Virus record (IMG/VR): IMGVR_UViG_3300029787_000007
Coordinates: 48,700 to 112,699 of that record
From: a virus
Length of the DNA: 64,000 nt
Direction: 5' to 3' (one strand)
The notes beneath the pieces are model-generated. The model was not told where the DNA came from. It ran no database searches and saw only the letters and a list, made by a program, of their open reading frames with translations. The position numbers were made by a program, and so were the translations under genes. Within the stretch, counting starts at the first letter, position 1; every line of letters begins with the position of its first letter. Shown here one piece after another: positions 41,328-60,345 of this stretch.

Positions 41328-41704
41328 TGCCCAGAAGAAAAAACACAAAATTTATTGATCCTCGTTACTTTTTGAATGAGAAGGTTGGGCGCCTCGATGA
41401 GTTTCAAGATGATCCTATGGCACGGGAAGCCCTCGTCGATGTAGAGGCCAGTGAACGCTCTAATCCTGAAGGTCTTAAGGGCGCCTCAAAAACGTTTAAT
41501 CAGATGTTTGCACCGCAGTATAATAAACTTAGAGATTTACTTGTAAGTCGCGAAGGAATAGAAAAGTTTCTTCGTGGATATAAAAAGATGTTAAGCTACA
41601 TGAGCACAACACAGCAGCGCCCTCATCAAGCTCAAATAAGCCCAAAAGATCTTGCATTGTGGATGCAAGATGATCCAAAAACATTAAAGCTTCTAGGTCT
41701 TTAA
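41327..41704 (+). CDS. Hypothetical protein with leader type B (start revised from 41288)
   Basis: ATG overlaps previous TAA; begins MPRRKNTKFIDPRYFLNE. Confidence 0.8.
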   Translation: MPRRKNTKFIDPRYFLNEKVGRLDEFQDDPMAREALVDVEASERSNPEGLKGASKTFNQMFAPQYNKLRDLLVSREGIEKFLRGYKKMLSYMSTTQQRPHQAQISPKDLALWMQDDPKTLKLLGL

Positions 41705-41709
41705 CTATA

Positions 41710-42189
41710 ATGAAAATCACTAAAAAGCTATTAAAAGAAATAATTAGACAAGAATGCAATATGCTTCTTTGCGAAGGAGCAATTGCAGATGTTTTAATAC
41801 CTGCAATAAAAAAATTCAACGACAAAATAGACTCCGATAAAAATTCACCTAACTATGCTATTTCGAAACAAGCTTTTATTATTATGTATGACCATCTTCG
41901 TGGGAAAATTTCAACACAGCAAGCCATACAAAGTATTTCAAAGATAGGCACTACGGGCACATACAATAAGTTATTAAAAGGCGCCCTTGATAGTTTTATT
42001 GAATTTAGGAATGACTATGACAAAGGAAAATTTAATTCACAAGCTATCAATACTGTGTCAACGAACTTAAATATGGCTACTAAAAATTATGATAATGTAA
42101 AAGCTTTAAATCAAAAACGAAATGTTTATACTGACGATACTATTGATTTTGAACCGGCTGAATTAGCAGGCGCAACACGCGTAAGGTGA
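41710..42189 (+). CDS. MKITK-leader protein (putative internal head protein)
   Basis: MKITKKLLKEIIRQE..LLCE. Confidence 0.75.
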   Translation: MKITKKLLKEIIRQECNMLLCEGAIADVLIPAIKKFNDKIDSDKNSPNYAISKQAFIIMYDHLRGKISTQQAIQSISKIGTTGTYNKLLKGALDSFIEFRNDYDKGKFNSQAINTVSTNLNMATKNYDNVKALNQKRNVYTDDTIDFEPAELAGATRVR

Positions 42190-42198
42190 TTTTTACTT

Positions 42199-42339
42199 AT
42201 GTTAAGAAAACTCTCACGATATCTTTATAAAAAAGGCATAAGCGATTTAGAGCTTTTAAAGATTATCGGGATTGTTTTAATGTCAGCAACATTTGTAGGC
42301 GTCATGCTTTATGGAGCAATAGGGGCGCTCGTTCTATAA
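42199..42339 (+). CDS. Small membrane protein (46 aa, not in ORF track)
   Basis: MLRKLSRYLYKKGISDLELLKIIGIVLMSATFVGVMLYGAIGALVL; AAGGTG upstream; fills intergenic gap. Confidence 0.55.
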   Translation: MLRKLSRYLYKKGISDLELLKIIGIVLMSATFVGVMLYGAIGALVL

Positions 42340-42346
42340 AAAAGCC

Positions 42347-42378
42347 TTGACAACAGATCCCGCATAGGGTATTATAAT
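42347..42378 (+). promoter_or_regulatory. Sigma70-type promoter for the Mre11-Rad50 fusion gene
   Basis: TTGACA (42347) - 17 bp - TATTAT (42370), with overlapping TATAAT (42373); GGAGGG SD before TTG start. Confidence 0.75.
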
Positions 42379-42408
42379 ACTAACGGCATAACTACGTCTG
42401 GAGGGAAC

Positions 42409-45400
42409 TTGAAGTTTGCACATATAAGCGATACTCATATCAAAAATTTGAAGTATCATTACGAGTATAGAATTGTTTTTGAGCAATTATACGAATTATT
42501 ACGAGAACAAAAAGTCGATTATATTGTTCACTGCGGAGACATTGCGCACACCAAAACACAAATCTCGCCAGAGTTTGTGGAGATGTGCTCCGACTTCTTC
42601 CGGAACTTAGCGGCCATTGCACCCACATATATTATCTTGGGCAATCACGACGGCAATCTAAAGAATAGTAGCCGCCAGGACGCACTCACGCCGATTGTAG
42701 ATGCTTTAGATTTGCAGCATCTCCACTTACTAAAAAACTCTGGTGAAACACACTTAGATGATATGTTTTGTTTGAACGTGCTTTCTGTATTTGATCGAGA
42801 GCGTTGGATTAAGCCAAGTAATCCAGATAAGATTAACATCGCACTTTACCATGGCTCAATTAGCAACTGTAAAACAGATGTCGGTTGGACGATGGTAAAT
42901 GGCGAAGATACAATCACCATCTTTGACGATCATGACTTTTCAATGCTTGGCGACATTCACAGGCGTCAGTTTTTAGACGAAGAAGGTCGTGTGTGGTACG
43001 CAGGTTCCACCGTCCAGCAAAATCATGGCGAGACTAACGACAAGGGTATTCTTATATGGGATATTAGATCAAAAAATGATTGGGATATTGAACCAATTGT
43101 ATTTAAAAATCCTAAGCCGTTTTTTACAATTCCTCTTACATTGAAAGGAAGGATGCCGCGCAAACTTGACGTGCCTGCGGGAGCAAGACTTCGCCTTGTT
43201 AGTAATAACAACCTACCACTTGATGTCATGCGCAGAGCAATGGATATTGCTAAACACAGGTTCAAGCCAGAAAGCATTTCATTTTTAAACCGTGCCAGCG
43301 GTCAACGCGGAAATGTGGAGGATATCACTAACGGGCTAAAGACAGAGAATCTTCGAGATCCAAAGATTCAAGAGGAGCTTATGGATGAGTACCTTAAAGA
43401 CTATCAGGTGCCTTCTGATACTATGGAAAAAGTTTATGACCTTAATCGTACTTACAATAAAATTATTGAAGAGAAAGAGGAAATAGCGCGCAATGTAAAT
43501 TGGAAACTTAAGTCGTTTGAATTTGATAATTTGTTTAATTATGGAGAAGATAACGCTGTTAATTTTGATAGGCTTAATGGTATTGTTGGCATCTTCGGAA
43601 AGAATTTCAGCGGAAAAAGTTCTATTATTGATGCTGCTCTGTATACTCTCTTTAATACTACTTCTAAAAACGAACGAAAAAACCTCAATGTTATTAATCA
43701 AAATAGAGATTTAGGCAGAGGAAAACTTACAATTGAGGCCAACAATGCCACCTATACTATCGAGCGCGAATCTGTAAAGTATGTTAAGCGACTAAAGGGT
43801 GTCGAGACGCAAGAAGCAAAGACTGATTTAAACTTTGAAAAGAGAGACCACATCACTGATGAAATAACTTCTCTTAATGGTACAACTCGCAACGAGACAG
43901 ATGCAAACATTCGCAAGCACTTTGGAACAATTGATGATTTTATGGTTTCGTCACTAGCGTCTCAACACGGTGCACTTGCGTTCATTGATGAGGGCTCCAC
44001 TAGACGTAAAGAAATCATTGCTAAGTTTTTAGATCTTGAGGTATTTGAGAAGAAGTTTAGGATGGCAAAGGAAGACTCGGTTGAAGCTAAGGTAATACTG
44101 AAGAAACATCAAGATAGAAATTATGATGACGAGATTGATGGGGCGAACGAAATACTTGAAGATCGTCGGAACAGCGTTAAGGCCAATAAATATTTCTGTA
44201 CAGAGCTGAGAGGAGAGTTGACAGGGCTACAGGATAGTCTCGGGGCACTAGAAGCACAAATTTCTGCTATTCCCAACGAGCTTATTGATATTGCCAAGCT
44301 TCGTAAAGAATATAAGGGCAAAACTAAAAAAGCCGCAACTTTGATGCAGCAAATTAAAGAGCAGTCAATAGAGATTGAAAGAAAAAAGCGTGTACTTAAT
44401 AATTGCAGAGGCAAGATTGATCATGTAAATGTAGCTAAACTTATGAAGCTTCAACGTGAAATTGAAAACCTTAACGAAAAAGAAAAGAAACTTAATGAAG
44501 AGCTGGCTGAAATTGCTAAAAAAGAAGCGCTTCTTCATGACCATGAATATGATCCAGATTGTAAATTTTGCTCTGACAATAAGTTTGTTAGAGAAGCTAA
44601 TCTTGCGGTAGCAAGTAAAGAAGTGGTTCAATACGAGCTACAAAACACAGTGGTTGATTTGACAGCGTTAAATCCCTCAGATGTATTCACCCAACTAATG
44701 GAACACACACGCATATCTGGTATGATCACCAAGCTTGAAACAGAAATTACGCAGCTTGATTTAGAGCGCGAACGCAATAAAACTGTTAAATCAAAAATCG
44801 AGCTAGCTCTTAAAGATATTTCGTCAAAAATTACGGAGTATGAAGATAACAAAGAGGCTATCGAGAATCTTGAGAAACTGTTAAGTGAAAAGCGAGAATT
44901 AGAGCAAAGCATCAAGAGCAAGAATAAGAAGATTGCATCTTGCGAAGAAGAGACACTTGACCTCGTTAAACTTGTGGGATCCTACGAACAACGTGTAGAA
45001 ACACTGCGAGATCAAAAGCAAGAGTATCATGATCTCAGATCATCGTTCGCAGCATACGATTTGTTTATGCGATGTATGCACCCGAACGGAATCGCTTACG
45101 ATGTCATTAAGAAGAAGATTCCGGTAATCAATCAAGAGATTGCGAAGGTTCTCGCTAATATTGTGGAGTTTGAGATTTTCTTTGAAAGTTCTGGTAATAA
45201 ATTTGACATCTTTATTAAGCATCCAGAGTATGATGAGCGCCCGATTGAAATGGCGTCAGGCGCAGAAAAAACGATGGCTGCGATGGCTATTCGGTTATCG
45301 TTATTATCTGTGTCGTCACTGCCCAAGGGTGATCTATTTATTCTTGACGAGCCGGGCACAGCATTAGATGAAGAAAATATGGAGGGATTTATTCGAATCT

Positions 45401-45525
45401 TGGAACTAATTAAAGTGTATTTTAAGAACGTTTTGCTTATCTCACACCTTGATTCGCTCAAAGACTGCGTTGATATGCAAATTGTTATAGACAAAAAACA
45501 TGGATACGCAAGGGTTAATCAATAG
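42409..45525 (+). CDS. Fused Mre11/SbcD nuclease - Rad50/SbcC ATPase (gp47-gp46 fusion)
   Basis: SDTH, GD, GNHD, LGDIH phosphoesterase motifs; Walker A GKNFSGKS; coiled coil with CKFC hook; SGAE signature; Walker B LDEPGTALD; ISH. Confidence 0.93.
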   Translation: MKFAHISDTHIKNLKYHYEYRIVFEQLYELLREQKVDYIVHCGDIAHTKTQISPEFVEMCSDFFRNLAAIAPTYIILGNHDGNLKNSSRQDALTPIVDALDLQHLHLLKNSGETHLDDMFCLNVLSVFDRERWIKPSNPDKINIALYHGSISNCKTDVGWTMVNGEDTITIFDDHDFSMLGDIHRRQFLDEEGRVWYAGSTVQQNHGETNDKGILIWDIRSKNDWDIEPIVFKNPKPFFTIPLTLKGRMPRKLDVPAGARLRLVSNNNLPLDVMRRAMDIAKHRFKPESISFLNRASGQRGNVEDITNGLKTENLRDPKIQEELMDEYLKDYQVPSDTMEKVYDLNRTYNKIIEEKEEIARNVNWKLKSFEFDNLFNYGEDNAVNFDRLNGIVGIFGKNFSGKSSIIDAALYTLFNTTSKNERKNLNVINQNRDLGRGKLTIEANNATYTIERESVKYVKRLKGVETQEAKTDLNFEKRDHITDEITSLNGTTRNETDANIRKHFGTIDDFMVSSLASQHGALAFIDEGSTRRKEIIAKFLDLEVFEKKFRMAKEDSVEAKVILKKHQDRNYDDEIDGANEILEDRRNSVKANKYFCTELRGELTGLQDSLGALEAQISAIPNELIDIAKLRKEYKGKTKKAATLMQQIKEQSIEIERKKRVLNNCRGKIDHVNVAKLMKLQREIENLNEKEKKLNEELAEIAKKEALLHDHEYDPDCKFCSDNKFVREANLAVASKEVVQYELQNTVVDLTALNPSDVFTQLMEHTRISGMITKLETEITQLDLERERNKTVKSKIELALKDISSKITEYEDNKEAIENLEKLLSEKRELEQSIKSKNKKIASCEEETLDLVKLVGSYEQRVETLRDQKQEYHDLRSSFAAYDLFMRCMHPNGIAYDVIKKKIPVINQEIAKVLANIVEFEIFFESSGNKFDIFIKHPEYDERPIEMASGAEKTMAAMAIRLSLLSVSSLPKGDLFILDEPGTALDEENMEGFIRILELIKVYFKNVLLISHLDSLKDCVDMQIVIDKKHGYARVNQ
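45405..45413 (+). promoter_or_regulatory. Candidate late promoter ACTAATTAA
   Basis: In 3' end of Mre11-Rad50 gene, before the MKITK cluster. Confidence 0.45.
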
Positions 45526-45535
45526 GAGATTCAAA

Positions 45536-45802
45536 ATGAAAATAACCAAAACGCAACTTAAACAGATTATTAAAGAAGAGATTGAGGCAGTTCTTGAACA
45601 AGAAATGCGCCCACTTGATGCTAAGTTTGAACCGCTTGTAGCGCAAGCACAAGACATGCTTGATCAAGGCAAACCAAAAAGTCAAGTAAAAATGAAGCTG
45701 TTGCAACTTCTTACACTTAGTGGTGGTGATTATAATGCTGGACCTGAATCTCATGCGGTGTTGGGAGCTATTACCGATAGAGTACCAGGACTTAAAAAAT
45801 AA
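45536..45802 (+). CDS. MKITK-leader protein (start revised from 45500)
   Basis: AGGAG SD; MKITKTQLKQIIKEEIEAVLE. Confidence 0.8.
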   Translation: MKITKTQLKQIIKEEIEAVLEQEMRPLDAKFEPLVAQAQDMLDQGKPKSQVKMKLLQLLTLSGGDYNAGPESHAVLGAITDRVPGLKK

Positions 45803-45848
45803 AAAACCCTGCTAAAAGCTTCAAGGTAAACCAAAAGGAGATTACAAA

Positions 45849-46166
45849 ATGAAAATTACCAAAACGCAACTTAAGCAATTAATTAAAGAAGAAGTAGCCA
45901 AGACACTAGATGAAATCGGGGGCCCCATGACACCGGATATGGCTCGCGACGATAATTTGTTGGCGTTTGAAAAACCTAATGTAACCAATTTAAGGGTTAA
46001 TCCATATGGAAGCGCAGAGGGCGGCGAAGGTTATGAATTTATAATGAATGTTGCTGGTGTTGGCATGATTAGTGGACAACTGAACGCCCAATCTTTAGAA
46101 AGATTACAAAAATCTAAGGGAGGCTATCAAAGCAACATTATGGGAACGTCAGTATCGGATGAATAA
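45849..46166 (+). CDS. MKITK-leader protein
   Basis: AGGAG SD; MKITKTQLKQLIKEEVAKTLDE. Confidence 0.8.
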   Translation: MKITKTQLKQLIKEEVAKTLDEIGGPMTPDMARDDNLLAFEKPNVTNLRVNPYGSAEGGEGYEFIMNVAGVGMISGQLNAQSLERLQKSKGGYQSNIMGTSVSDE

Positions 46167-46203
46167 AAGACGTCTAAAATGAAAATATCTTAAGGAAACA
46201 ATA

Positions 46204-47343
46204 ATGTCAGGCGATAACGATAACAATGAATTTGATTTTCTGCCTCCCGCAGAACCACCACCCTCTTTTAATCAGGAGAAAGACAGCTATCACGAAGAAG
46301 TCGCAGCAGAGGACTTTGGAATGGTTGAGGACTTTGGATTACAGATGGAATACTCTGATGAAGATCTCCTCCCAGAAAACACTGCTCCTTCTTCAGTAAA
46401 CATTGGCTTTGTTGGTGTCGGTGGGGGCGGAAACAAGATGGCTAATGCTTTTTTGGAGCTTGGCTTTAATAAGACGCTGCTTGTAAACTCTACAGGCAAA
46501 GATATTCCGAAGAATGTGGAAGAAGATCACGTTGTTCTTATTCCTGATTCTGATGGCATCGGAAAGAATGTGGATTATGGTAAGGAAGTTTTCTCCACCA
46601 ATGGTGCAATTGTAGAAGATGCATTGCGTATTAAGCTTGGAAAAGTTGACTGGCTAATCGTTCTTGCTGGTGGGGGCGGCGGCACTGGAAGTTCAGTGAC
46701 TGCTCTTCATCCTGTGTTTGAGCGCTATATGAAATCAGTACAGTCTTCTGGAAAAGTGCTTTATGTTGTTTCTTGGCCCACTGCACAAGAAAACCTTAAT
46801 CCTACAATTGCTCGTAATGCGTTAACGCTGGCAAACGATGTTGGTAAGTATCCGCACATTATTTTAGACAATGAACGCGCTACGCGCCTGCTCCGCGGCA
46901 GAATTGGTATGTTAGGTATGTATCCTGTTGCTAACACACAGTTTGCTAAGTCATTTGCTCAAGTGCTAAAGCTCTCCACAGAGGATTCGCCAATCCAATC
47001 TTTTGATAGTAAAGATCTGGAAACATGTTTGAGCAATAATGGAAGAGCCTTTCTCGGCTCAACCATGATAAAAGATCCAAACACTGGAAAGCTTGGATCG
47101 GTAATTCTTCACAACTGTATGAATCGCTCTGCATGCCCGCCACCTAAAGGTAAAGCTGCCGCAGGTTCGTTAATCTTAGTGGCGTCTGAAGAAATGGTGG
47201 CAGACCCAAGAGTCAGTAAAAACATCGAGTCAGCAATCGCTTATGTCGGCGGTCGGTGCGAGACACTATTTTCTGGCGTTTACGTGCGCAAGAATGTGCC
47301 TGGATTGATTGCGATACTAAGTATGAATGGATTGGCGACATAA
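46204..47343 (+). CDS. Tubulin/FtsZ-superfamily GTPase (phage PhuZ/TubZ/CetZ-like)
   Basis: GVGGGGNK (T1), DGIGKN (T3), GGGTGS signature (T4), WPTAQE (T5), LDNE (T6), FDSKDL (T7). Confidence 0.9.
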   Translation: MSGDNDNNEFDFLPPAEPPPSFNQEKDSYHEEVAAEDFGMVEDFGLQMEYSDEDLLPENTAPSSVNIGFVGVGGGGNKMANAFLELGFNKTLLVNSTGKDIPKNVEEDHVVLIPDSDGIGKNVDYGKEVFSTNGAIVEDALRIKLGKVDWLIVLAGGGGGTGSSVTALHPVFERYMKSVQSSGKVLYVVSWPTAQENLNPTIARNALTLANDVGKYPHIILDNERATRLLRGRIGMLGMYPVANTQFAKSFAQVLKLSTEDSPIQSFDSKDLETCLSNNGRAFLGSTMIKDPNTGKLGSVILHNCMNRSACPPPKGKAAAGSLILVASEEMVADPRVSKNIESAIAYVGGRCETLFSGVYVRKNVPGLIAILSMNGLAT

Positions 47344-47354
47344 GGAATAGTGAA

Positions 47355-48038
47355 ATGAAAATCACAAAATCACAACTTAAACAGATTATTAAAGAAGAGA
47401 TCTCAAAGGTATTGAATGAGGATGAGCAAAAAAACTTACAAATGAACAAATTAGTAAGTGCTTTGAAGAATACTAGACTCAGGCCAGAACAAGTTGATGG
47501 AGCAGAACTCGAAACTCTTATGGCCAAAACGAATGCCGCGGCTAAGGGCTTCAGCCGTGTAGACTTCTACAATGCTGCTTTGATGGCTGGAATTATAGAC
47601 GACGATGACTACCTTGCTAGCAGCTTTCTTGATCCGAGCGACAGCATCGGCGCCGAACGCAAACGTCGTTTTCAAGGTGAAGAGCTTCTTAAAAAACAAT
47701 TTGAAGCTACAACTGGTCGTAAATTTGATAACTTTATGTACGCATATCACATCTTCGGCGATGAAGAAGCAATTTCGGCGAAAACGTCTAGCGCAGTGCA
47801 TGGTCATGAATTTTTGAAACGCGGCCGTATCGACAAGCTTTCAAGAAAAGATAAAGATTTATACAGAAGTCTTCGCAATCCAATATTAATTGTTCGCGAT
47901 AGTGAAGTTACCCAAATCCCAGATGATATTTATGTTCAGGGCGTGCTATTACCCGACGAAGATGACTACAAAGACAAAGTTGAGGTAATGGACTTAGATA
48001 AAATAATTGATGACGCCATAGAAGGAATCTTAAAATGA
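47355..48038 (+). CDS. MKITK-leader protein (start revised from 47256)
   Basis: MKITKSQLKQIIKEEISKVLNE; AAGGA upstream. Confidence 0.8.
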   Translation: MKITKSQLKQIIKEEISKVLNEDEQKNLQMNKLVSALKNTRLRPEQVDGAELETLMAKTNAAAKGFSRVDFYNAALMAGIIDDDDYLASSFLDPSDSIGAERKRRFQGEELLKKQFEATTGRKFDNFMYAYHIFGDEEAISAKTSSAVHGHEFLKRGRIDKLSRKDKDLYRSLRNPILIVRDSEVTQIPDDIYVQGVLLPDEDDYKDKVEVMDLDKIIDDAIEGILK

Positions 48039-48289
48039 AAATCACAAAATCCCAACTTAAACAGATTATTAAGGAAGAGCTTGAATTGGTCATGGAGTCA
48101 CGAGAGTTGGACGAAGGCCTTGAAAATATCACACCAGAAAACTTAAAAATAGTTGCTGATGCGGCACAAGCACTTGTGACCCAGCCGGAAGTCTTAGCTA
48201 TGATCGCAGGAACAGCCGGCGTTACTGTAGTTAAACAGCTAGCAGATTTTTTTAAAGGCAAAAAGCCTCCAGAGGAAAATCTACAATGA
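48035..48289 (+). CDS. MKITK-leader protein with hydrophobic C-terminal helix
   Basis: MKITKSQLKQIIKEELELVME..LDE. Confidence 0.8.
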   Translation: MKITKSQLKQIIKEELELVMESRELDEGLENITPENLKIVADAAQALVTQPEVLAMIAGTAGVTVVKQLADFFKGKKPPEENLQ

Positions 48290-48543
48290 AGCCAGATATG
48301 TGGAAAATATTTACAATTGTATTGGGGGCAGTTATTATGCCTCTTGCTGGTTGGGTATGGTCAGTGAATGTAGAAGTATCTCAATTAAGAAATGATATGG
48401 GAGATTTAGAGCGACAGGTGGCAGAACTTGAAGAGCAAGTTGATGAGCAAGAAGAAGCAACGAGAACTTTAATTAGAGTAGAAAGCGACTTAGCTCACGT
48501 TAGAAGCATACTTGATAGAATTGAGGACATAGTAACACGATGA
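48286..48543 (+). CDS. Single-TM coiled-coil membrane protein
   Basis: IFTIVLGAVIMPLAGWVW then heptad-rich region. Confidence 0.7.
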   Translation: MKPDMWKIFTIVLGAVIMPLAGWVWSVNVEVSQLRNDMGDLERQVAELEEQVDEQEEATRTLIRVESDLAHVRSILDRIEDIVTR

Positions 48544-48770
48544 AAATTATTCTTGCTAGTTTTTTGCTTGCTGCTATTACGTTGCCGATTGACGTAGATA
48601 GGTTAAAGTCAGATTTATCTGACATGGAGCGGGATGCTTTAGCACTAGAATTATATTTACAAGACAGGCAAGATTATGAAGATTACTGCCCACATATCAG
48701 TTGGGCACAACCTCCATTAAGCACTTATAAAGAAACATTGGTTTCACATTTACCAGAAGGATGCAAATAA
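48540..48770 (+). CDS. Small secreted/membrane protein
   Basis: Signal-peptide-like MKIILASFLLAAITLP; two Cys. Confidence 0.6.
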   Translation: MKIILASFLLAAITLPIDVDRLKSDLSDMERDALALELYLQDRQDYEDYCPHISWAQPPLSTYKETLVSHLPEGCK

Positions 48771-49096
48771 TGAAAATTACAAAAACACAACTTAAGCAGA
48801 TTATCAAAGAGGAGATTGAAAATTGTAATTTATTTGAAGTTAAATTACAAAAAGAAAGTGAAGTTGATAGATTGTTGACTTATATCCATAAACATTTTAG
48901 AACCACTATTGATCACCCTCTTGAGCAGGCAGAGTTAATTTACAAATTGGTTGATAAATATTATGCAAGTATTCCTGGTCCAGAACAATCTGCAATTTTA
49001 AGCTTGGCGCGCGATTTAAAACATCAAACTGATGATGCCGCCATGCAAGATTTTGAACTTGAAGAAGAGCCAGAAGCAGAATCTCAAGAACAATGA
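48770..49096 (+). CDS. MKITK-leader protein (start revised from 48761)
   Basis: MKITKTQLKQIIKEEIENCNLFE. Confidence 0.8.
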   Translation: MKITKTQLKQIIKEEIENCNLFEVKLQKESEVDRLLTYIHKHFRTTIDHPLEQAELIYKLVDKYYASIPGPEQSAILSLARDLKHQTDDAAMQDFELEEEPEAESQEQ

Positions 49097-49578
49097 AAAT
49101 CACAAAAACACAACTTAAGCAGATTATAAAAGAAGAGCTTGATGAAATCAGGGCCAGCGGCCTTGGAACTTTTGGCGTTGAATACCCTGATCTTACTGCA
49201 GATCTTGGTCCCGGCGGTGAAACACAATTAAAAGATGCGGTTAAACAATTAGGACAAATAATTTTGGAACTTAGAAATTTGCATGATAGCTTGCCAAACG
49301 ACAGGAGAGTCCAGTTTCAGAAAAAAATGATAGAGAACGTTATTGTTCTTAATTCACAACTTGATGCGGAAAGAGCAGAAAAAGAACATAGAAATGTAAG
49401 CTATGGTGAAGAAGCATTAGAAGAAAGAGAGCTTACAAAGAAAGAAAAAAAACAAAAAGAAAAAGTTGTAAAAGGCATGAAGAGATCTAAAAAAGATTTT
49501 AAAAAAAGATATGGCGCTGATGCCGAGTCAGTGATGTATGCAACAGCCACAAAGATGGCAAAAAACAAAAAGGAATAA
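49093..49578 (+). CDS. MKITK-leader protein with basic C-terminal domain
   Basis: MKITKTQLKQIIKEELDE; C-terminal KDFKKRYGADAESVMYATATKMAK. Confidence 0.8.
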   Translation: MKITKTQLKQIIKEELDEIRASGLGTFGVEYPDLTADLGPGGETQLKDAVKQLGQIILELRNLHDSLPNDRRVQFQKKMIENVIVLNSQLDAERAEKEHRNVSYGEEALEERELTKKEKKQKEKVVKGMKRSKKDFKKRYGADAESVMYATATKMAKNKKE

Positions 49579-49582
49579 AACA

Positions 49583-49777
49583 ATGCAACAGTATGTACAG
49601 GGAAAATTAGATAGATTAGTTGAGAAAGCAATTTCTCGTAAGTTTATGGTATGGCTAACAGCTACTGGGCTGTTTGCTTTTTATAATTTAGCATCCAGCG
49701 ATTGGGTTATGATCTCGGCTATTTATATCGGTGGTCAAGCTGTAATTGATGGTATTGCTAGAATGAAAGGTGTTTGA
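49583..49777 (+). CDS. Putative holin (2 TM; start revised from 49538)
   Basis: AAGGA SD; SRKF then two hydrophobic helices; 64 aa. Confidence 0.5.
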   Translation: MQQYVQGKLDRLVEKAISRKFMVWLTATGLFAFYNLASSDWVMISAIYIGGQAVIDGIARMKGV

Positions 49778-50187
49778 TGATTAAAGTTGACTGGCTTAAA
49801 GTTCTTGGTTTTGCAAAGAAAAACTGGAAAGAAATAACAATTATTGTTCTTTTACTTGCAGTTATTGGAAAAATGCGTTATGATTATAAACAACTTGAGA
49901 ACACATATCAAGTCAGTCAACAATCTCTTCAAAATCAAATTGATGGCTTACAAGAAATACATGCAGAAGAATTAGAAAGAAAAGAACACGCATTGCAACA
50001 GTATCGTGATGCATTAGAATTATTGGAGAGGGAGTATGAGAAAGAAAGAGGTCAGATTGAGATTGTGGTTGAAGAGCGAATTGTGGAAATTGAAACAACG
50101 ATCGACAACCGCAGACAATTCACAGAAAACAGAGAAGAACTCGCAGAACAAATAACAGATACATTTGGGTTTCAGTATGTTCCTTAA
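49774..50187 (+). CDS. Putative inner-membrane spanin-like protein
   Basis: N-terminal TM (ITIIVLLLAVIG) plus long coiled coil; follows holin-like gene. Confidence 0.45.
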   Translation: MMIKVDWLKVLGFAKKNWKEITIIVLLLAVIGKMRYDYKQLENTYQVSQQSLQNQIDGLQEIHAEELERKEHALQQYRDALELLEREYEKERGQIEIVVEERIVEIETTIDNRRQFTENREELAEQITDTFGFQYVP

Positions 50188-50590
50188 AGCATTATTATTT
50201 TCTATGGTAGCTCATGCCGAGCCGCCACAATTTACTATTCTTGGAGAAAATGAGCCAGCACCCTTTGAGGGTGTTTTGTTTAACAAGCGAGGTATCGCTG
50301 AGCTGTTGGTATTACCTATGGACTATAGATTAAATTGTGATTTAGAAGTTGAATATCAACTTGATATACAAGCCACAGAGTTTCATCTTGAGCGTCAAAA
50401 CTTTCAAATTCGATTGGATGCGTTGAGATCAGAATATGATTTGCGTATTGAGCAAAAGGATATTGAAATAGCCGCTTTGCAAGAGGCAACACTTAAACAA
50501 TCGCCAAATAATAGACTATGGTGGTTTGCTGGTGGCATTGCAGCAGGAGTCGTCACTACATATGGCGCCTATAGAGTGTTTAATGAGTGA
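50177..50590 (+). CDS. Secreted coiled-coil protein with C-terminal TM (possible spanin partner)
   Basis: Signal peptide MFLKALLFSMVAHA; C-terminal WWFAGGIAAGVVTTYGAY. Confidence 0.5.
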   Translation: MFLKALLFSMVAHAEPPQFTILGENEPAPFEGVLFNKRGIAELLVLPMDYRLNCDLEVEYQLDIQATEFHLERQNFQIRLDALRSEYDLRIEQKDIEIAALQEATLKQSPNNRLWWFAGGIAAGVVTTYGAYRVFNE

Positions 50591-50972
50591 AGATCCAAAC
50601 AAGATTGCTGCGATAGAAAAAGCTATTACTGAAAAGTATGGCAAAGAAACTGTTCAAAATCCAAAGGGGAACTGGAATGATGACAAGGAGAAAGAGTATC
50701 TTGAGCAATCTAAACAGTTTTATAAGAAACAGTATAAAAAGAAAGAGTGGCAAGAAAAAGTAGATGTTAATGGGATTAAGATTTCAAAAAAACTACTTAA
50801 TAGAGAATCTTTGAAATGTTGTCCTGTCTGCGGAAGTTTTCCAAAGAAATCTATGGATGACGTTTGTATCGTCAAATTTGATTGTTGCAGTCGCTGCTAT
50901 ATTCAATATGTCGAACACAGAGAAGAGAGATGGCTAAAAGGATGGAGACCTAAAAATGGCAACAGTATATGA
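50583..50972 (+). CDS. Hypothetical Zn-finger protein (start revised from 50526)
   Basis: CPVC ... CSRC; overlaps upstream stop. Confidence 0.7.
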   Translation: MSEDPNKIAAIEKAITEKYGKETVQNPKGNWNDDKEKEYLEQSKQFYKKQYKKKEWQEKVDVNGIKISKKLLNRESLKCCPVCGSFPKKSMDDVCIVKFDCCSRCYIQYVEHREERWLKGWRPKNGNSI

Positions 50973-51501
50973 AATCGTTCAAGGATTATCACAAGCAGCA
51001 GCAAATGCTTATGACGGCGCACTAACAGAAGATGGCGAAGCTATTAAAGCAGGCCTTCAGCGAGAGGAGGGTCGTCCTCTTTTAGACAAAAGAGTTATGG
51101 ACGGATTTAACGTTAAGTTTTTTGGAAATATGATGTGTCTTTCCTATCATTCAGAGGTCCAGCTTAAAGAAGTTTATAGGGCTGGCTTTGAAAGTGATAT
51201 TGAACAAAGACTATCAGATATTAAAAACTGGCTGACAAAAGAATATAAGAAAGTTACCGGAAACTCAGTGACACTAACAGAGGAGGGCGAGGTCGATGTT
51301 CGGGTTGAAAACTCATCTCGGGTTCGCTCTTGGGTTATGGCTAAAAAGCACTATGTAGTTGGCGGATTAGATAAAGAAATGCAAAACGACAGCCCATCTG
51401 AGGAGCGGTTGGAGAATAATTGGAGATCGTTTCTTGAGCAGGGTGGCTGGAACGGAACCGGAGGCGATCGTCCTGATAATGACACAAGGAAAAAAGAGTA
51501 A
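50956..51501 (+). CDS. Hypothetical phage protein (181 aa)
   Basis: GGAG SD; contains NWRSFLE near C-terminus. Confidence 0.75.
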   Translation: MATVYEIVQGLSQAAANAYDGALTEDGEAIKAGLQREEGRPLLDKRVMDGFNVKFFGNMMCLSYHSEVQLKEVYRAGFESDIEQRLSDIKNWLTKEYKKVTGNSVTLTEEGEVDVRVENSSRVRSWVMAKKHYVVGGLDKEMQNDSPSEERLENNWRSFLEQGGWNGTGGDRPDNDTRKKE

Positions 51502-51818
51502 TGAAAATCACTCTTGAAAGATTACGCGAGATTATAACTGAGGAAGTAATTAAAGAGGCAGTCGACCCAGAGGACGCACAACGCACTATCGTCGCATTAT
51601 TACAGGGCACTGCCCAAAATGTAACCGGCGATATTATGGGCGCTGTGTATGACGAAATGTATGCTTCTGATGTGGCAGAGCCAGAAGAGCCAGAAATGAG
51701 AAAATCAATCAGAAGCCCTGGCCAAGAAGAAGCTGAAGATGTCCCGGCGGACCTTCCAAGGCAGGGAAAAATTCGAAGCCTGGAAGAGAGTATTGAGATT
51801 GAAATAATAGATGATTAA
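51501..51818 (+). CDS. MKIT-leader acidic protein
   Basis: MKITLERLREIITEEVIKE. Confidence 0.75.
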   Translation: MKITLERLREIITEEVIKEAVDPEDAQRTIVALLQGTAQNVTGDIMGAVYDEMYASDVAEPEEPEMRKSIRSPGQEEAEDVPADLPRQGKIRSLEESIEIEIIDD

Positions 51819-53404
51819 TGAGTTTCCAACTATCAAAACAAGAAAAAGTAAAAGAGATACTTAAGTGTGGAAAAGACCCCTCCTACTTTCTTAACAACTA
51901 TGCAAGAATATCACACCCATTACATGGACTTATTCTTTTTAACACTTTTGACTTCCAAGATGAACTTCTTAAAGATTTTAATGATTACCGTTTTAATATT
52001 ATTCTAAAAGCTCGTCAGTTAGGCATTTCAACAATTACTGCTGGCTATATTGTATGGATGATGCTGTTCCATCGTGATAAAGCTATTCTTGTCATGGCAA
52101 CAAAGTTTGCGACAGCAGGAAACTTAGTTAAAAAAGTTAAAAACATTATGCGCAATGTGCCCGATTGGTTAAAAATTGCACAGATTAGCGTTGACAATAG
52201 AACTTCTTTTGAGCTTTCTAACGGTTCTTCAATTAAAGCAGCGTCTACCTCTGGCGATGCGGGTCGTTCTGAAGCGTTGTCATTGCTTGTTCTTGATGAG
52301 GCTGCGCACATTGAAGGTTTAGAGGAATTATGGACCGGTCTATACCCCACGTTGTCAACAGGTGGTCGCTGTATTGCCCTATCTACACCTAATGGAGTAG
52401 GAAATTGGTTTCATAAAACTTGCACAGATTCTGAGGCCGGCACTAATAATTTTAATTTAACCACTTTGCCGTGGGAAGTGCACCCAGATAGAGATCAAGA
52501 ATGGTATAAAAAAGAAACCAAGAATATGTCAAAACGACAAATCGCCCAAGAGCTTGAGTGCAATTTCAACACATCTGGCGAGACAGTTATTGATCCTGAT
52601 TGCATGCAGTGGATGCTGTCTACAGTTAAGGAGCCAAAATATCGCACCGGCTTTGATCGAAACTTTTGGATTTTTGAAGAATTCGATCCTGCCAGCAGCT
52701 ATTTATTGGTTGCTGATGTTTCACGAGGCGACGGCGCCGATTTTTCTACATTTCATATTATTAAACTTGAAACGTTAGAAATTATAGGAGAATATCAAGG
52801 CAAGCCAACAATTGATATGTTTGCCAACATGCTTAATAGCGTAGGTAGGGAGTTTGGAAATTGTATGGTTGTGGTTGAAAACAATAACATAGGATATTCC
52901 GTGCTAGATAAGCTGATAAACGAATATCAATATCCAAATGTTTATCATTCTATTAAGTCAACACACGAATATATTGAACAACACCAGGCTGAAATTCGCT
53001 CATCGGCAGTTTCCGGTTTTACAACATCAATGAAGACGCGCCCGCTCATCATAGCTAAATTAGAGGAGTTTATCAGAAATAAACTAATTACCATATACTC
53101 TTCTCGCACAGTCAACGAGATGAAAACTTTTATTTGGAGGAATGGTCGACCTGAAGCAATGAAAGGCTATAATGATGATTTAATCATGGCCCTCGCAATA
53201 GCGTGCTGGGTGAGAGACACAGCATTGCAGGCGAATGCCCGAGATTTAAATTATCAAAAAGCTTTTGTTAATTCAATTATTACCACTAAAACAACGATGA
53301 ATACAAGAATTAGCGGCCAAGAAGGGTACAAAAAAAATGATATTTTTGATAAAATGAGCGAAGCAGAAAAATTATACAATCAATATAAATGGATTATAAA
53401 GTGA
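51818..53404 (+). CDS. Terminase large subunit (T4 gp17-like)
   Basis: LKARQLGIST, LVLDEAAH, LSTPNG, nuclease ADVSRGDGADFS and DDLIMALAI. Confidence 0.95.
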   Translation: MSFQLSKQEKVKEILKCGKDPSYFLNNYARISHPLHGLILFNTFDFQDELLKDFNDYRFNIILKARQLGISTITAGYIVWMMLFHRDKAILVMATKFATAGNLVKKVKNIMRNVPDWLKIAQISVDNRTSFELSNGSSIKAASTSGDAGRSEALSLLVLDEAAHIEGLEELWTGLYPTLSTGGRCIALSTPNGVGNWFHKTCTDSEAGTNNFNLTTLPWEVHPDRDQEWYKKETKNMSKRQIAQELECNFNTSGETVIDPDCMQWMLSTVKEPKYRTGFDRNFWIFEEFDPASSYLLVADVSRGDGADFSTFHIIKLETLEIIGEYQGKPTIDMFANMLNSVGREFGNCMVVVENNNIGYSVLDKLINEYQYPNVYHSIKSTHEYIEQHQAEIRSSAVSGFTTSMKTRPLIIAKLEEFIRNKLITIYSSRTVNEMKTFIWRNGRPEAMKGYNDDLIMALAIACWVRDTALQANARDLNYQKAFVNSIITTKTTMNTRISGQEGYKKNDIFDKMSEAEKLYNQYKWIIK

Positions 53405-53412
53405 GAAGATAA

Positions 53413-55452
53413 ATGGCGCCAAGAAACCAAAATAAACAAGGTAGAAACCCAGCTAACAAACAATCTGAATTATTTAAAAGATTAACAAGATTATTTTCGG
53501 GTCCGATTATTAACTATAGATCCCAGTCGGGTCGCAGAATTCGCAGGCAGCATTTAGACAAATTCTCGTCAAGATTTAAATCAGCTTCCGGTCAGCAGTT
53601 TAAAAAATCTCTTTATAACCCTCTTGATAAAGTAGCTGCAAATGCAATTGGCAACCAGCGTAGATCTGAACGTTATGTTGATTTTGATCAAATGGAGTAC
53701 ATGCCAGAAATTGCATCGACAATGGATATATATGCGGACGAAATGACAACGTATTCAGAACTTCGCCCAATGATAAACATTAAATGTCCAAATGAAGAAA
53801 TTAAAGCAGTGCTTGGGATTCTATATGAACAAATTTTAAATGTTCAATATAATCTTTTTGGCTGGGCCCGAACCATGTGCAAGTATGGAGATTTCTTTTT
53901 GTATTTAGATATTGATGAAAAATTTGGTGTTCAATCTGCGATATCTTTGCCGATTCAAGAAATTGAAAGACTTGAAGGAATGGACTCAACCAATCCAAAT
54001 TATATTCAATATCAATGGAATAGTGCTGGTATGACTTTTGAAAATTGGCAGATTGCACACTTTCGAATTTTAGGAAATGATAAATATACTCCATACGGAA
54101 CATCTATTTTGGAGCCGGCCCGTCGTATTTGGAGGCAACTGACTTTAATGGAAGATGCGATGATGGCTTACCGTGTAATTAGATCATCAGAAAGAAGAGT
54201 CTTTAAAATCGATGTTGGTTCTGTTCCCCCCAATGACGTAGAACAGTATATGGAAAAAATCGTAACAAACCTCAAAAGGCACTCTGTGGTTGATCAGACA
54301 ACTGGTCGTATTGATTTACGATACAATCCTATGTCCATCGAAGAAGATTACTTTATCCCAGTGCGCCCAGGTTCTGCTACTGATATTCAAAATCTGGCAG
54401 GTGGCCAGAATACAACGTCGATTGATGATATCAAGTACCTTCGCGATAAACTTTTTTCCGCCTTGAAAATTCCCCAGGCCTACCTTGCGATGGGTGAAGG
54501 TGCTGCGGAAGATAAAACAACATTGGCACAAAAAGATATTCGTTTTGCTAGAACAATTCAAAGGCTACAAAGAGTTATTATATCTGAATTAGAAAAAATT
54601 GGCATTATACACTTATATACATTAGGATTCAGAGGAGATGATTTACTGGCATTTAGTTTATCTTTGAATAATCCATCTAAAATTGCTGAATTACAAGAAA
54701 TTGAACATTGGAAGTCTAAGTTTGACATCGCGGCTTCGGCTACAGAAGGTTATTTTTCTCGTCGGTGGGTTTCTGAAAAAATCTTTGGTATGTCGCATGA
54801 ACAATTTATACGCAATCAACGCGAGATGTATTATGATCGCAAGCATGACGCATCGCTAACTGCAGTTGCTGAGGCAGCAGCAGCTGGTGAAGGCATGGGC
54901 GGCATGGGCGGCGATTTAGGCGGCGATTTAGGCGGTGATTTAGGTGGCGATCTAGGAGGCGATTTGGGTGCTGGCCCAGAAGAGATGCCTGCCGGCGCCG
55001 CCGGCGCAGCAGCGCCCGGCCCAGAAAGCCCAGAAGGCGCCCCACCATCTCCAGAAGAAGGAGATCTTTTAGCAATTCCTCCTGGCTCAAGAGACTCACC
55101 TAGGTTAAGACCCCGAGCGCATGGTGGAAAGAGAAGTAAGGGTGTTAAGATGTATAACCCTGTTAATCCTAGAACCGATGGTAGAAAAGGCGCCGCTGTT
55201 AAATCACATAATAATTCAAAATGGTCAAAACAAATGAGTGGAGCCTCCATAAGAAACATTTTGCCGGGCGCTAGAGACATTCAAACCCTTGCAAGAGGTA
55301 TTTATGAGCAAGATGAGTCTATTTATAGTTTGAGAGAACAAGACGAAGAAAAGAAGCTTTTCCAAGTCAACAAGTCAATTAAGACACTTATTGAAGATTT
55401 AGACAGAAAAGACAAATTATTAGCGGAGAATAAGAATGAAGATAAGGCATAA
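53413..55452 (+). CDS. Portal protein (T4 gp20-like) with low-complexity C-terminal extension
   Basis: PYGTSILE..WRQLTLMEDAMMAYRVIR..ERRVFKIDVG; EEDYFIPVR; DIRFARTI. Confidence 0.93.
   Translation: MAPRNQNKQGRNPANKQSELFKRLTRLFSGPIINYRSQSGRRIRRQHLDKFSSRFKSASGQQFKKSLYNPLDKVAANAIGNQRRSERYVDFDQMEYMPEIASTMDIYADEMTTYSELRPMINIKCPNEEIKAVLGILYEQILNVQYNLFGWARTMCKYGDFFLYLDIDEKFGVQSAISLPIQEIERLEGMDSTNPNYIQYQWNSAGMTFENWQIAHFRILGNDKYTPYGTSILEPARRIWRQLTLMEDAMMAYRVIRSSERRVFKIDVGSVPPNDVEQYMEKIVTNLKRHSVVDQTTGRIDLRYNPMSIEEDYFIPVRPGSATDIQNLAGGQNTTSIDDIKYLRDKLFSALKIPQAYLAMGEGAAEDKTTLAQKDIRFARTIQRLQRVIISELEKIGIIHLYTLGFRGDDLLAFSLSLNNPSKIAELQEIEHWKSKFDIAASATEGYFSRRWVSEKIFGMSHEQFIRNQREMYYDRKHDASLTAVAEAAAAGEGMGGMGGDLGGDLGGDLGGDLGGDLGAGPEEMPAGAAGAAAPGPESPEGAPPSPEEGDLLAIPPGSRDSPRLRPRAHGGKRSKGVKMYNPVNPRTDGRKGAAVKSHNNSKWSKQMSGASIRNILPGARDIQTLARGIYEQDESIYSLREQDEEKKLFQVNKSIKTLIEDLDRKDKLLAENKNEDKA
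54907..54966 (+). repeat. 5 x 12-bp coding tandem repeat (GGDL)x5 in portal tail
   Basis: ggcggcgattta-type units with synonymous variation. Confidence 0.9.
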
Positions 55453-56272
55453 TAAAAAAAGAAATACGGCTTTTGTTTACGAGTCTTTAATTAAGGAAGC
55501 AACTGTAGCGATCATTAAAAAAGACGAGAAAAGAAAGCAAAAAGTTATTTCAATTTTAAAAACGCATTTTTTTGAAGATTCTGTATTAAAAAGACATTTG
55601 GACTGTTACCGATCATTATACGAAAGTCATAGTCTCGATCGCACAACTGCAGAAAAAATATTAAAGGAGGCTAAATTAGCTAGCCGACTGTTGGATACAG
55701 AAGGACTCTTTGTAAAACAGAGCGAGCTTATCAAAGACATTAATCAAGAGTTCACAACAGAGTTTTATAATACCTTTGTCCCTAACTATAAAACATTGGC
55801 CAGCATCACAAGCATTTTTTCTAATAAAATATCTCCTAAAAATGCTGTTATATTAGAAAATCAAATAATTGATGAAATGATTATTGAAGTTGGCCCTGCG
55901 CTTGGGGAAAACCAAGAGGTTGACGATTTAATTTTATCTTCTTTTGTGGTCAAGTTTAATGAAAAGTATGATGGCGAACTTTTAGATGAGCAAAAAACTC
56001 TTTTAAATTACTATATTTCATCTTTTCTAGACAATTCGCTTTCTTTGAAAACTTTTTTAAATGAAGAAATTGCAAGACTTAAAGATAACATGCAAAAATC
56101 TCTGTTGACAGAAGAAATTAGTGAAGACTTAGAGATGACAAATAAGACAAATAAAATAATTGAAAAATTAAATACATTCTATAATACAAATGTTGATGAG
56201 AATGTTTTACTAACAGTGCTCAAAACACAAAAATTAGTAAGGGAAATATTTAAAGATGGCGATAACAGTTAA
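55436..56272 (+). CDS. Hypothetical head-module protein (possible prohead core component)
   Basis: Follows portal; helical; multiple L/I-x-E sites. Confidence 0.6.
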   Translation: MKIRHNKKRNTAFVYESLIKEATVAIIKKDEKRKQKVISILKTHFFEDSVLKRHLDCYRSLYESHSLDRTTAEKILKEAKLASRLLDTEGLFVKQSELIKDINQEFTTEFYNTFVPNYKTLASITSIFSNKISPKNAVILENQIIDEMIIEVGPALGENQEVDDLILSSFVVKFNEKYDGELLDEQKTLLNYYISSFLDNSLSLKTFLNEEIARLKDNMQKSLLTEEISEDLEMTNKTNKIIEKLNTFYNTNVDENVLLTVLKTQKLVREIFKDGDNS

Positions 56273-56795
56273 AATCGGCAAGGGCGCGAAAACAACAACC
56301 GTTCGTCTTGAGATGAACATCCGTAAAAGTTTAAATGGTGATCTTATGATCTTTGATCATGGAGATATTGATATTGTACTATCGACATCCCAGAACAAGG
56401 TTGTTGCATTTCCCAAAGAAACAATGAATGATCTGGTATATGGAGCACAAAATAGATTATTTGCCCACCTTCGGAAAAAAGGCATAATAATAGCAGAATC
56501 AATCCAAGCGGGTTCGTTTTATGGATCCTTTGAGGGCTCTTTAGAAACTCCTTTTAAAGAAAACTTAAGTGCTGCAAAAATGGCGTTGGTTAACATAAGT
56601 AATTTTATTAATGAAGAGCGGCCATATTTTGAATCAGCAGAAGCCATTATATCAATGGCTGATGACGAGCTTGTTCACCCAGACAAAACGGACTCAACTG
56701 AATTGGGCGATGTGCCCCATAGTGTTGAGCAGGGCTCTATACGCCGCGGCAAGATTAGAGACCCTTATTCACTGAGTTATCTATATACTGTATAA
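56256..56795 (+). CDS. Hypothetical protein (179 aa)
   Basis: Coupled ORF in head module. Confidence 0.7.
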   Translation: MAITVKIGKGAKTTTVRLEMNIRKSLNGDLMIFDHGDIDIVLSTSQNKVVAFPKETMNDLVYGAQNRLFAHLRKKGIIIAESIQAGSFYGSFEGSLETPFKENLSAAKMALVNISNFINEERPYFESAEAIISMADDELVHPDKTDSTELGDVPHSVEQGSIRRGKIRDPYSLSYLYTV

Positions 56796-57112
56796 TGGAA
56801 TTATTAATATTTATACTTTGTGCCTATGGTCTTACGCAAATACTTGTTTACGGTAAGATTTTTTCAAAATTAAGGCCAAAAAAAGGCAAGCTTGGGGAAT
56901 TGGCAAACTGTCCTATGTGCATGGGTTTTCATGTTGGGTGGTTTTTAATGCTTCTTTCCCCGTTTACAGAACTATTTAGTTTTGATGTGACTGTGTTTAA
57001 TTTCTTTCTTTTAGGTTGGTTATCGTCGGGCACATCATATATGCTAAATATGCTAATTGGCGATCAGGGAATACAAATATCAAATACGGAGAAAAAAAAT
57101 GAAAATCACTAA
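56795..57112 (+). CDS. Small multi-TM protein with CxxC (DUF1360-like)
   Basis: Three hydrophobic segments; LANCPMCMGFHVG. Confidence 0.6.
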   Translation: MELLIFILCAYGLTQILVYGKIFSKLRPKKGKLGELANCPMCMGFHVGWFLMLLSPFTELFSFDVTVFNFFLLGWLSSGTSYMLNMLIGDQGIQISNTEKKNENH

Positions 57113-57617
57113 GCAGCTACTTCAAGAAATGGTCGAAGAAGAGCTAAAAATTCTTGTGGAGTCTGACGGTCAAGTTGACGAAGCACTTGGAGACATGTTC
57201 TCTAAAATGAAATCAAAATTAACTGGCGGTAGCACTGCCGCGTCTGCCTTCGCGACACGCCCAGTACAAATGGCAGTGGAAAAGCTTAAGACAGCTTTAG
57301 AAAAAACATCACCACAAAATAGAGCTATGGTAGTAGCAGATATGCTTTTAGATCTTGGCATCGGCGCCGATGAAATTCAAAGAGTCATGAGCCAAATCAG
57401 GGCCCAAGAGAAAGAAAGATCAGAAATGGTTCCCGGAACAGATCCTACGAAGAGAACAGCAATGGACGTACCAGAGCCCGGCCTGCCAAGTAGAGAGGCC
57501 CCCCGCCGACCCCCTTCTAGAGCATCTGCTCGTTCACGAGCCAGACGCCAAGGAGGTGGAGTAAGAATTCCAGCACTCGGTATGCAAGAAGGCAAGAAAA
57601 GAAGGTCAAAGAAGTAA
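57099..57617 (+). CDS. MKITK-leader protein with Arg/Pro-rich basic tail (start revised from 57057)
   Basis: GGAG SD; MKITKQLLQEMVEEELKILVE. Confidence 0.78.
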   Translation: MKITKQLLQEMVEEELKILVESDGQVDEALGDMFSKMKSKLTGGSTAASAFATRPVQMAVEKLKTALEKTSPQNRAMVVADMLLDLGIGADEIQRVMSQIRAQEKERSEMVPGTDPTKRTAMDVPEPGLPSREAPRRPPSRASARSRARRQGGGVRIPALGMQEGKKRRSKK

Positions 57618-60094: not shown

Positions 60095-60099
60095 TACAA

Positions 60100-60345
60100 A
60101 TGGCCAATAAAACAAATGTAATTGTGAGAGCAAGAGAGTGCAGGAACAACAATGAAAGAATAATTCGAAAATTTATGAAGAAAGTCAAAAAAGAAAGAAT
60201 TATTGAGCAAGTAAAAGATAGGCGACGATATAAAAAGCCATCTGTTGCTAAGAAAGAAAAGCGCTTACGTGCACAGCGTGCCCGATTAAGAGAAAGGCTT
60301 AAAAAACAAAGAGCGCAAGAAAGGCGCAATAGAAGAAATAAGTGA
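60100..60345 (+). CDS. rpsU: Phage-encoded 30S ribosomal protein bS21 (start revised from 60076)
   Basis: V.VR....ERIIRKFMKKVKKERIIEQVKDRRRYKKPS..KK pattern; highly basic. Confidence 0.85.
   Translation: MANKTNVIVRARECRNNNERIIRKFMKKVKKERIIEQVKDRRRYKKPSVAKKEKRLRAQRARLRERLKKQRAQERRNRRNK

Follow-up and report, generated by a model that had tools for sequence, protein, structure and literature searches.

A shared N-terminal leader on unrelated small proteins of marine T4-like phages, a candidate capsid-targeting propeptide

In a 112.7-kb viral contig, rated 60% complete by CheckV, the closing 64 kb (IMG/VR record IMGVR_UViG_3300029787_000007, positions 48,700 to 112,699; this whole stretch of 64,000 nucleotides is called the window) carry nine open reading frames (ORFs) whose products begin with one leader of about 22 residues, consensus MKITKxQLKQIIKEE-[LI]-E-x-[VA]-L-x-E, and then part ways. 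We consider it probable, at about 60%, that this leader is a T4-style capsid-targeting propeptide of uncultured marine T4-like phages of ~190 kb and of their huge-phage relatives. Late in infection the leader, probably as one helix, would hold the attached protein in the core of the assembling prohead; the S77 protease encoded at position 57690 would then cut after Glu at I-K-E14 and/or at the L-x-E near residue 22, and the freed body would stay inside the head with the DNA and probably enter the next host. Where several leader-plus-body units share an ORF, the internal leaders would act as cleavable linkers. We infer core binding, cleavage, packaging and ejection, as well as the functions proposed for the bodies.

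The leader and the proteins that carry it

The sequence-only reading of the window had placed MKIT starts at 41710, 45536, 45849, 47355, 48035, 48770, 49093, 51501 and 57099, and the ORF listing and a six-frame motif scan agree on all nine, which lie on the + strand. Six carry the strict form MKITK[TS]QLKQ[IL]IKEE and are found by motif scan and leader profile: 45536..45802 (88 aa), 45849..46166 (105 aa, Leu at position 11, acidic body), 47355..48038 (227 aa, starting 12 nt past a tubulin-like gene), 48035..48289 (84 aa, with four relatives of its body in other contigs), 48770..49096 (108 aa, acidic body) and 49093..49578 (161 aa, Lys-rich C-terminus). The other three are looser variants that are still picked up by the profile, which was built from the first 32 residues: 41710..42189 (MKITKKLLKEIIRQE..; 159 aa, basic body), 51501..51818 (MKITLERLREIITEE; 105 aa) and 57099..57617 (172 aa, basic body with an Arg-rich tail), the last in the slot directly upstream of the protease gene. 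On the whole contig, at E<=0.01, the profile gives ten matches, these nine and an 86-aa ORF at contig position 6453, outside the window (MKITKQYVKELILEEL). The ORF at 59675..60094 (+ strand), once proposed as a diverged tenth member, is missed by the profile and has a conserved orthologue in the complete 195.7-kb relative G031 (position 170043); this head-module gene is conserved, its product starts with a leader-like helix, and it stands outside the tagged set. The nine window proteins, 84-227 aa long, have mutually dissimilar bodies, with no pair at BLASTP E<1e-3. Chance falls far short of accounting for a leader shared in this way. A Pfam scan of the ten leader proteins gave no significant match, and the sole match in a PHROG scan joins the C-terminus of the 49093 protein to phrog_12788 (E 2e-7), a family of uncharacterised function; look-alikes of the 47355 body in the ESM Atlas come down to just one unnamed viral cluster (0.76).

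A virus-specific, N-terminal tag on non-homologous bodies had been expected, and this is what we find. Searched with a degenerate DNA pattern of the leader, IMG/VR yields at least 120 matching stretches, and 0 of 185,579 cellular genomes (one per bacterial or archaeal species) match: the tag is virus-only. In six-frame translations, 263 of 272 core octapeptides have an ATG or GTG start exactly 7 residues ahead of them. Across the 120 related loci there are 228 leader ORFs (median 113 aa), and clustering 224 bodies from these loci by BLAST gives 159 groups, 140 with a single member; ordinary paralogy, with homology from end to end, is rejected because the bodies are dissimilar by BLAST. Against 1.84 billion representative proteins the profile matches 12,676 clusters (50% identity) at E<=1e-3, and among the 51 leader-bearing proteins (124-398 aa) that came back from a word-based search, not one is named or has a Pfam domain. 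Copy number ranges from 2 to 13 per record, with ten on this contig and four and seven in two complete genomes; by the same profile Flavobacterium phage immuto has 2, the 484-kb phage LR756508 has 8 and Microcystis phage Mel-JY01 has 0. The two variants in immuto (vB_FspM_immuto, MW353176) sit on a 252-aa protein encoded at 113144-113902 (MKKSQLRQIIKEAL..) and on a 73-aa protein, immuto35A_198, encoded between the portal neighbour and the protease (MKKSQIVKAVQEVLEE). In LR756508 about fifteen degenerate leaders (e.g. MKIQEQKLRGIIKEEIKKIVNE) lie close together about the portal and an S77 protease of the long form. Very large phages, LR756508 and the 244.7-kb record G030, where the S77 domain lies in an ORF of ~575 aa, have MKITK-type leaders too, strict or degenerate, so that the tag extends beyond the ~190-kb clade.

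Is it the peptide that is conserved, or the DNA that encodes it? The six strict copies are 75-92% identical in nucleotide sequence, with exact runs of up to 29 nt, and the content of the arrays differs between relatives, both of which would suit a 45-nt DNA element that serves mainly as a recombination anchor for cassette shuffling and whose peptide has no function. Yet the six copies differ at 34% of third codon positions and at 5% of first and second positions, a sevenfold excess, the DNA flanking the leader on either side shares just 25-35% identity among them, and the upstream DNA is unrelated except for the Shine-Dalgarno site. Since third positions vary more and the flanks are unrelated, selection acts on the leader peptide and not on the DNA. 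The peptide is kept across the 12,676 clusters, its residue-class conservation runs to position 22 and its internal copies stay in frame, so that we regard the anchor as very improbable, while recombination may occur as a by-product. A pure DNA repeat is rejected by the synonymous variation and by the in-frame internal copies.

Beyond the 15 residues fixed by the search pattern, [LI]16, E17, [VA]19, L20 and E22 are conserved across the 120 loci, and conservation falls to background after E22. A hydrophobic-x-Glu site had been noted soon after the strict motif, and it is present in every window copy; in 211 relatives the second such site ends at position 18, 21 or 22 in ~69%, and at each later position in 1-3%. 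Within the leader itself I-K-E14 is invariant and matches, in sequence, the T4-type (L/I)-x-Glu site. The downstream site is therefore not the sole candidate for cleavage.

The best profile hits are single ORFs with two to four leader-plus-body units (including P0052, P0054, P0056 and P0057), and equivalent multi-unit ORFs were verified in the related loci L077, L043, L028 and L007 (L007:2687). The internal copies, in frame, often lack Met and KIT (e.g. ..SRFAKSQLRQIIKEEL..). A small basic Cys peptide (..YLSNIYKWCP.G.KC.PEKKKTKWWKGR) occurs either as a stand-alone tagged gene or as the fused last unit behind an internal leader. Such internal copies fit a putative docking or cleavage module that can also be used as a linker. 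They also bear on the idea that the leader merely enhances translation initiation, its A-rich first codons raising expression: the genes do start with A-rich ATG AAA AT. ACA AAA, mostly behind a good Shine-Dalgarno site, but conserved copies without a start codon largely refute this explanation, and amino-acid conservation over 22 codons with synonymous variation is not what it predicts. Given the Met-less internal copies, the leader is not a translation-start signal, and we find the enhancer hardly credible.

The prohead protease and the avoidance of its motif

The tagged genes stand immediately upstream of a T4-type head module and within it. On the + strand the window encodes a large terminase (51818..53404), a portal of the T4 gp20 type (53413..55452; PF07230, E 7.8e-77) and a prohead core serine protease of the T4 gp21 type, family S77 (57690..58295; PF03420, E 7.8e-29; phrog_207), which is the proposed leader-removing enzyme. 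The sequence-only reading was right about this protease: it is a Peptidase_S77 with 30% identity to T4 gp21, and the motifs of the catalytic His and Ser are kept, its GELDHP and SSRG lining up with their T4 counterparts. By portal, the closest cultured phages are Mel-JY01 and immuto (~39% identity), both with the same gene order in the head module. A gp23 family search of the contig found no major capsid gene, which is explained by the contig being ~60% complete; scaffold and capsid protein were taken instead from G031, where the genes for the gp22-like scaffold and the capsid protein come later, farther downstream.

The predicted co-occurrence of tag and gp21-type protease is borne out. Among tag-bearing IMG/VR records of at least 30 kb, 25 of 36 encode an S77 protease, as do both complete ones (2/2), and the 11 records lacking it are fragments rated 20-62% complete. 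In the 25 S77-bearing records every strict tag gene (51/51) is on the protease strand, and 39 of the 51 begin on the upstream side of that protease at a distance of 7.5-18 kb. Between a conserved membrane protein and the protease is a slot, occupied by 57099 in the window, in which relatives have 0, 1 or 2 tag genes. Likewise, 51501 is inserted between the conserved gene at 50956 and the terminase, a place where G031 has no leader gene. Given the variable occupancy of the protease slot, the tagged genes are accessory and yet embedded in the head operon.

Proteins that remain in a head together with a Glu-specific protease might be expected to differ in composition from those it degrades. We counted [LI]-x-E in each protein against the expectation from its own composition, with [LI]-x-D as the control motif. 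In 204 tagged bodies, taken from residue 25 onward, the observed/expected ratio is 0.92 (95% confidence interval 0.82-1.03) for [LI]-x-E and 1.34 for [LI]-x-D. Size-matched non-tagged ORFs from the same strand and contigs (n=527) give 1.34 (1.28-1.41) and 1.08, acidic-matched controls (n=324) 1.37 and 1.09, and large non-tagged ORFs (n=230) 1.27 and 1.04; the scaffolds of the clade (n=16) give 1.76 and 0.89. The control motif moves in the opposite direction to [LI]-x-E. For the nine window bodies, 5 occurrences of [LI]-x-E are observed and 11.4 expected, with a Poisson P(<=5) of 0.03 against plain expectation and 0.002 against the neighbours' rate, and the [LI]-x-D ratio is 1.37. A replicate on 189 public leader proteins with leaders masked gives 1.02 and 1.31. 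In T4, a positive control in which the numbers of proteins are small, the mature forms of IPI, IPII, IPIII and Alt (n=4) show 0.70 and 1.40, the degraded proteins gp22, gp67 and gp68 (n=3) 2.33 and 0.18, and 39 other T4 proteins 1.17 and 1.08. In this deficit the tagged bodies bear the mark of proteins that have to withstand a protease specific for Glu in (L/I)-x-E. The avoidance is new support of a sequence-only kind, and it is what a role as capsid cargo would predict; weighing against it, the deficit is a population statistic measured against crudely called control ORFs. Asp at the cleavage position is known to block processing in T4, but not targeting (PMC9026906).

The same counts bear on the idea that tagged proteins are auxiliary parts of the prohead core or scaffold, like T4 gp67 and gp68, which are degraded and expelled so that nothing is delivered. 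The 57099 protein and its counterparts occupy the position of gp67/gp68 in T4, and many bodies are acidic like gp67. Degradable proteins, however, are dense in L-x-E (2.33 for T4 gp22, gp67 and gp68, 1.76 for the clade's scaffolds), in contrast to the 0.92 of the tagged bodies, and the deficit as we read it argues against degradable core proteins. Presence and number also change from one close genome to the next (0-2 tag genes in the slot by the protease, 2-13 in a record), and the bodies are hyper-diverse, which one does not expect of essential assembly parts. A role in the core alone is thus improbable.

Likeness to known systems and the weighing of the evidence

A capsid targeting sequence (CTS) on the internal proteins of T4 was reportedly described by Mullaney and Black in 1996. 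The T4 CTS is carried by IPI, IPII, IPIII and Alt and removed by the gp21 prohead protease (PMC3012670, PMC9026906); the internal proteins of T-even phages are diverse, the conserved CTS being their only common feature (PMC3012670). Read from NC_000866, the T4 propeptides are MKTYQEFIAE in IPII and IPIII, MKTFKEF..ITE in IPI, MAKINELLRE in gp24, MELITELFDE in Alt and MLKEQLIAE in gp22, and all of them end in [Q/E/D]-hydrophobic-hydrophobic-x-Glu, as the leader does in ..Q-I-I-K-E14. Both systems share a short Met-Lys N-terminal propeptide on otherwise unrelated small proteins, the same hydrophobic-hydrophobic-x-Glu end, an S77 gp21-type protease in the head module, and mature parts that are poor in L-x-E and rich in L-x-D. 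In an alignment of capsid N-termini the clade's conserved ELLRE, followed by S, falls in the column of L-T-E65 of T4 gp23, Glu65 being the residue after which gp23 is known to be cut. The differences are in size, number and arrangement: the tag here has 15-22 residues, compared with 10-19 in T4, and is found on up to 13 genes per record and in 12,676 clusters overall, compared with three or four genes in T4; the bodies here are mostly acidic; the tagged genes gather within the head operon and immediately before it; and multi-unit ORFs have in-frame internal copies.

Other systems are less close. The ejection proteins of SPN3US, phiKZ and 201phi2-1 have long N-terminal propeptides (PMC5694885, PMC10052503). 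Head-internal proteins of these giant phages are likewise processed after Glu by a gp21-related protease, and the paralogues gp53 and gp54 have an identical 15-residue N-terminus that was compared with the CTS by the authors (PMC5694885, PMC10052503). They differ in that their propeptides are mostly longer than 100 residues, with A/S/G-x-E as the motif, and are carried by paralogues, unlike the unrelated bodies seen here. In encapsulin cargo-loading peptides, as in P22 scaffold-fusion loading, a short portable peptide sends diverse cargo into a shell of the HK97 fold, but such peptides usually stand at the C-terminus and attach to the shell protein itself; no maturation protease takes them off, and their cargo does not pass into a host. 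With the hyperplastic regions of T4-type phages and their PeSL (promoter stem-loop) shuffling, the tagged genes have in common rows of small, fast-changing genes at a fixed place and short repeated DNA at gene boundaries; here, what repeats is the coding sequence of a leader whose peptide is under selection, and not a promoter stem-loop. Our literature search, which included the exact motif, found no paper describing the tag, searches by concept gave the T4 and giant-phage literature only, and no virion proteome of phage immuto was found.

Several observations weigh against a capsid-targeting propeptide. The leader profile has 0 matches in the whole T4 genome, and homology with the T4 CTS is thus not established. 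Searching cultured phages for the strict tag (tblastn of the leader) gave none, with one weak match in LR756508. The motif match by itself counts for little, since hydrophobic-x-Glu is common in charged helices. The view of the leader as an amphipathic helix has fared poorly: the consensus has a hydrophobic moment of 0.28, a value that 22% of shuffles reach, and therefore we make no claim of strong amphipathicity. An AF2 model of the 48035 protein (five sequences) has a pLDDT of 53.6, and its predicted helix at residues 5-21 and break at 22-28 are only suggestive. Two-thirds of the bodies (66%) are acidic (pI<6), whereas T4 internal proteins are basic, and the tag array also contains genes that are not head genes, for a tubulin-like protein, an Mre11-Rad50 fusion and membrane proteins. 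When the leader was co-folded with the gp22-like scaffold of the clade, the scores were 0.00 with alignment A3 and 0.00 with A2, which bears neither way.

Some of these points would suit a different partner. The leader could be a general docking helix for another conserved partner, such as a chaperone or the tubulin of the phage, a site on a membrane or some host machine, on early or host-takeover proteins that never enter a capsid, their proximity to head genes merely reflecting a hyperplastic region. The case for the capsid is indirect and drawn entirely from sequence; the island does encode a tubulin-like GTPase, Mre11-Rad50 and small membrane proteins, and most bodies are acidic, unlike T4 internal proteins. 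Moreover, one copy lies ~100 kb from the head genes, and in some relatives arrays lie ~80 kb away. Docking elsewhere nevertheless leaves unexplained why [LI]-x-E is scarce and [LI]-x-D frequent in the bodies, as in the packaged proteins of T4, why tag genes are inserted in the head operon beside the protease, why the protease motif stands at the end of the tag, and why the tag tracks S77-bearing phages. We judge it unlikely. The earlier proposal of a T4-style leader removed by a gp21-type protease from diverse cargo is therefore upheld in part: virus-only occurrence, N-terminal position, non-homologous bodies, the link to S77 and the avoidance of L-x-E in bodies favor it, and the assignment of cleavage to the downstream site alone does not stand, I-K-E14 being a second candidate.

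Neighbouring genes and the meaning of the tag

Two tandem genes just upstream of the first tagged gene (40920 and 41327; 40920..41704, + strand) share a second leader, M-x-x-RKN-x-K-F-IDPRYF-[ML]-x-E, which in the form M-[AP]-x-RKN-x-K-[FR]-IDPRYF-[ML]-x-E is found on dissimilar bodies beside MKITK genes and likewise ends hydrophobic-hydrophobic-x-Glu. It has 28 copies in the 120 related loci (L001-L120) and another in G031 (180568), and its bodies (n=18) have an L-x-E observed/expected ratio of 0.69. A further motif concerns the gp22-like scaffolds of the clade (L136-L153), which end in a conserved RMKRLAGIK; RMQKLAGI or LQELAGI occurs near the N-terminus of small proteins of immuto and LR756508 (L131:40-504; L133 is LR756508) and may represent another capsid-related tag, one that mimics the scaffold end.

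Within the tag array, positions 46204-47343 encode a GTPase of the tubulin/FtsZ family (PF00091, E 3e-6, below the curated cut-off), a gene kept at the same place in G031 (182193-181054). Its 3' end forms the 20 nt before the 47355 leader gene, and these 20 nt resemble those before 48035 (GCGACATAAGGAAT.. and GCCATAGAAGGAAT..; window positions 47335-47354 and 48015-48034). A single 1038-aa ORF at 42409-45525 fuses an Mre11/SbcD-type phosphoesterase to a Rad50/SbcC-type ATPase (Pfam, PHROG), and G031 has the same fusion. The sequence CTATTTAT occurs 9 times in the window, always on the + strand (36023, 40877, 45334, 49719, 55319, 60346 and three more), several copies lying 25-200 nt upstream of gene starts, including those of the first leader block and of structural genes. 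It may be a late-promoter element; its count is not above chance, being reached in 18 of 100 shuffles.

Three head-module genes are conserved, unlike the tagged bodies, and resemble protease-degraded scaffold or core proteins in their richness in L-x-E. All three belong to no known family: 55436-56272 (12 observed, 5.8 expected), 58273-59688 (9 and 4.0) and 59675-60094 (6 and 1.6), the last of which in this respect looks like a degradable core protein. Directly behind the portal, G031, immuto, Mel-JY01 and LR756508 have counterparts of 55436, as judged from N-termini compared by eye. A small Arg/Lys-rich ORF at 60076-60345 in the head module resembles ribosomal protein bS21; RpsU is annotated at the same relative place in Mel-JY01, and G031 has a counterpart. 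The contig ends within the ORF at 60876-63998, which encodes more than 1041 aa and has long internal repeats (..KLKFHDVGGGEEIFAS.NGHLE.NAGTTLDMTAPTVD.NASTAVT..), present three times; this ORF sits between head genes, where relatives carry several fibre-like genes.

The principle of a CTS removed by a maturation protease is known from T4, and the advance here is therefore one of scale, lineage and testability, not of kind. A broader proposal, which we put forward tentatively and at somewhat less than even odds, is that one peptide serves both as address tag and as cleavable linker, loading thousands of fast-evolving proteins (the 12,676 clusters), some of them polyproteins, into the heads of marine T4-like phages, including those above 400 kb, where they would be processed by the head protease and later injected as a first wave of host-takeover or anti-defence effectors. 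If so, the [LI]-x-E deficit would be a sequence-only marker for packaged proteins in any phage with a gp21-type protease. Should the reading as a capsid-targeting propeptide hold, avoidance of a protease motif could serve as a simple flag for such proteins in other phages, and the tag would offer a natural, portable means of loading foreign proteins into large capsids and releasing them. Some 12,700 unannotated marine viral clusters would gain a common address, inside the capsid and delivered with the DNA, and would together list candidates for the effectors that abundant ocean phages inject.

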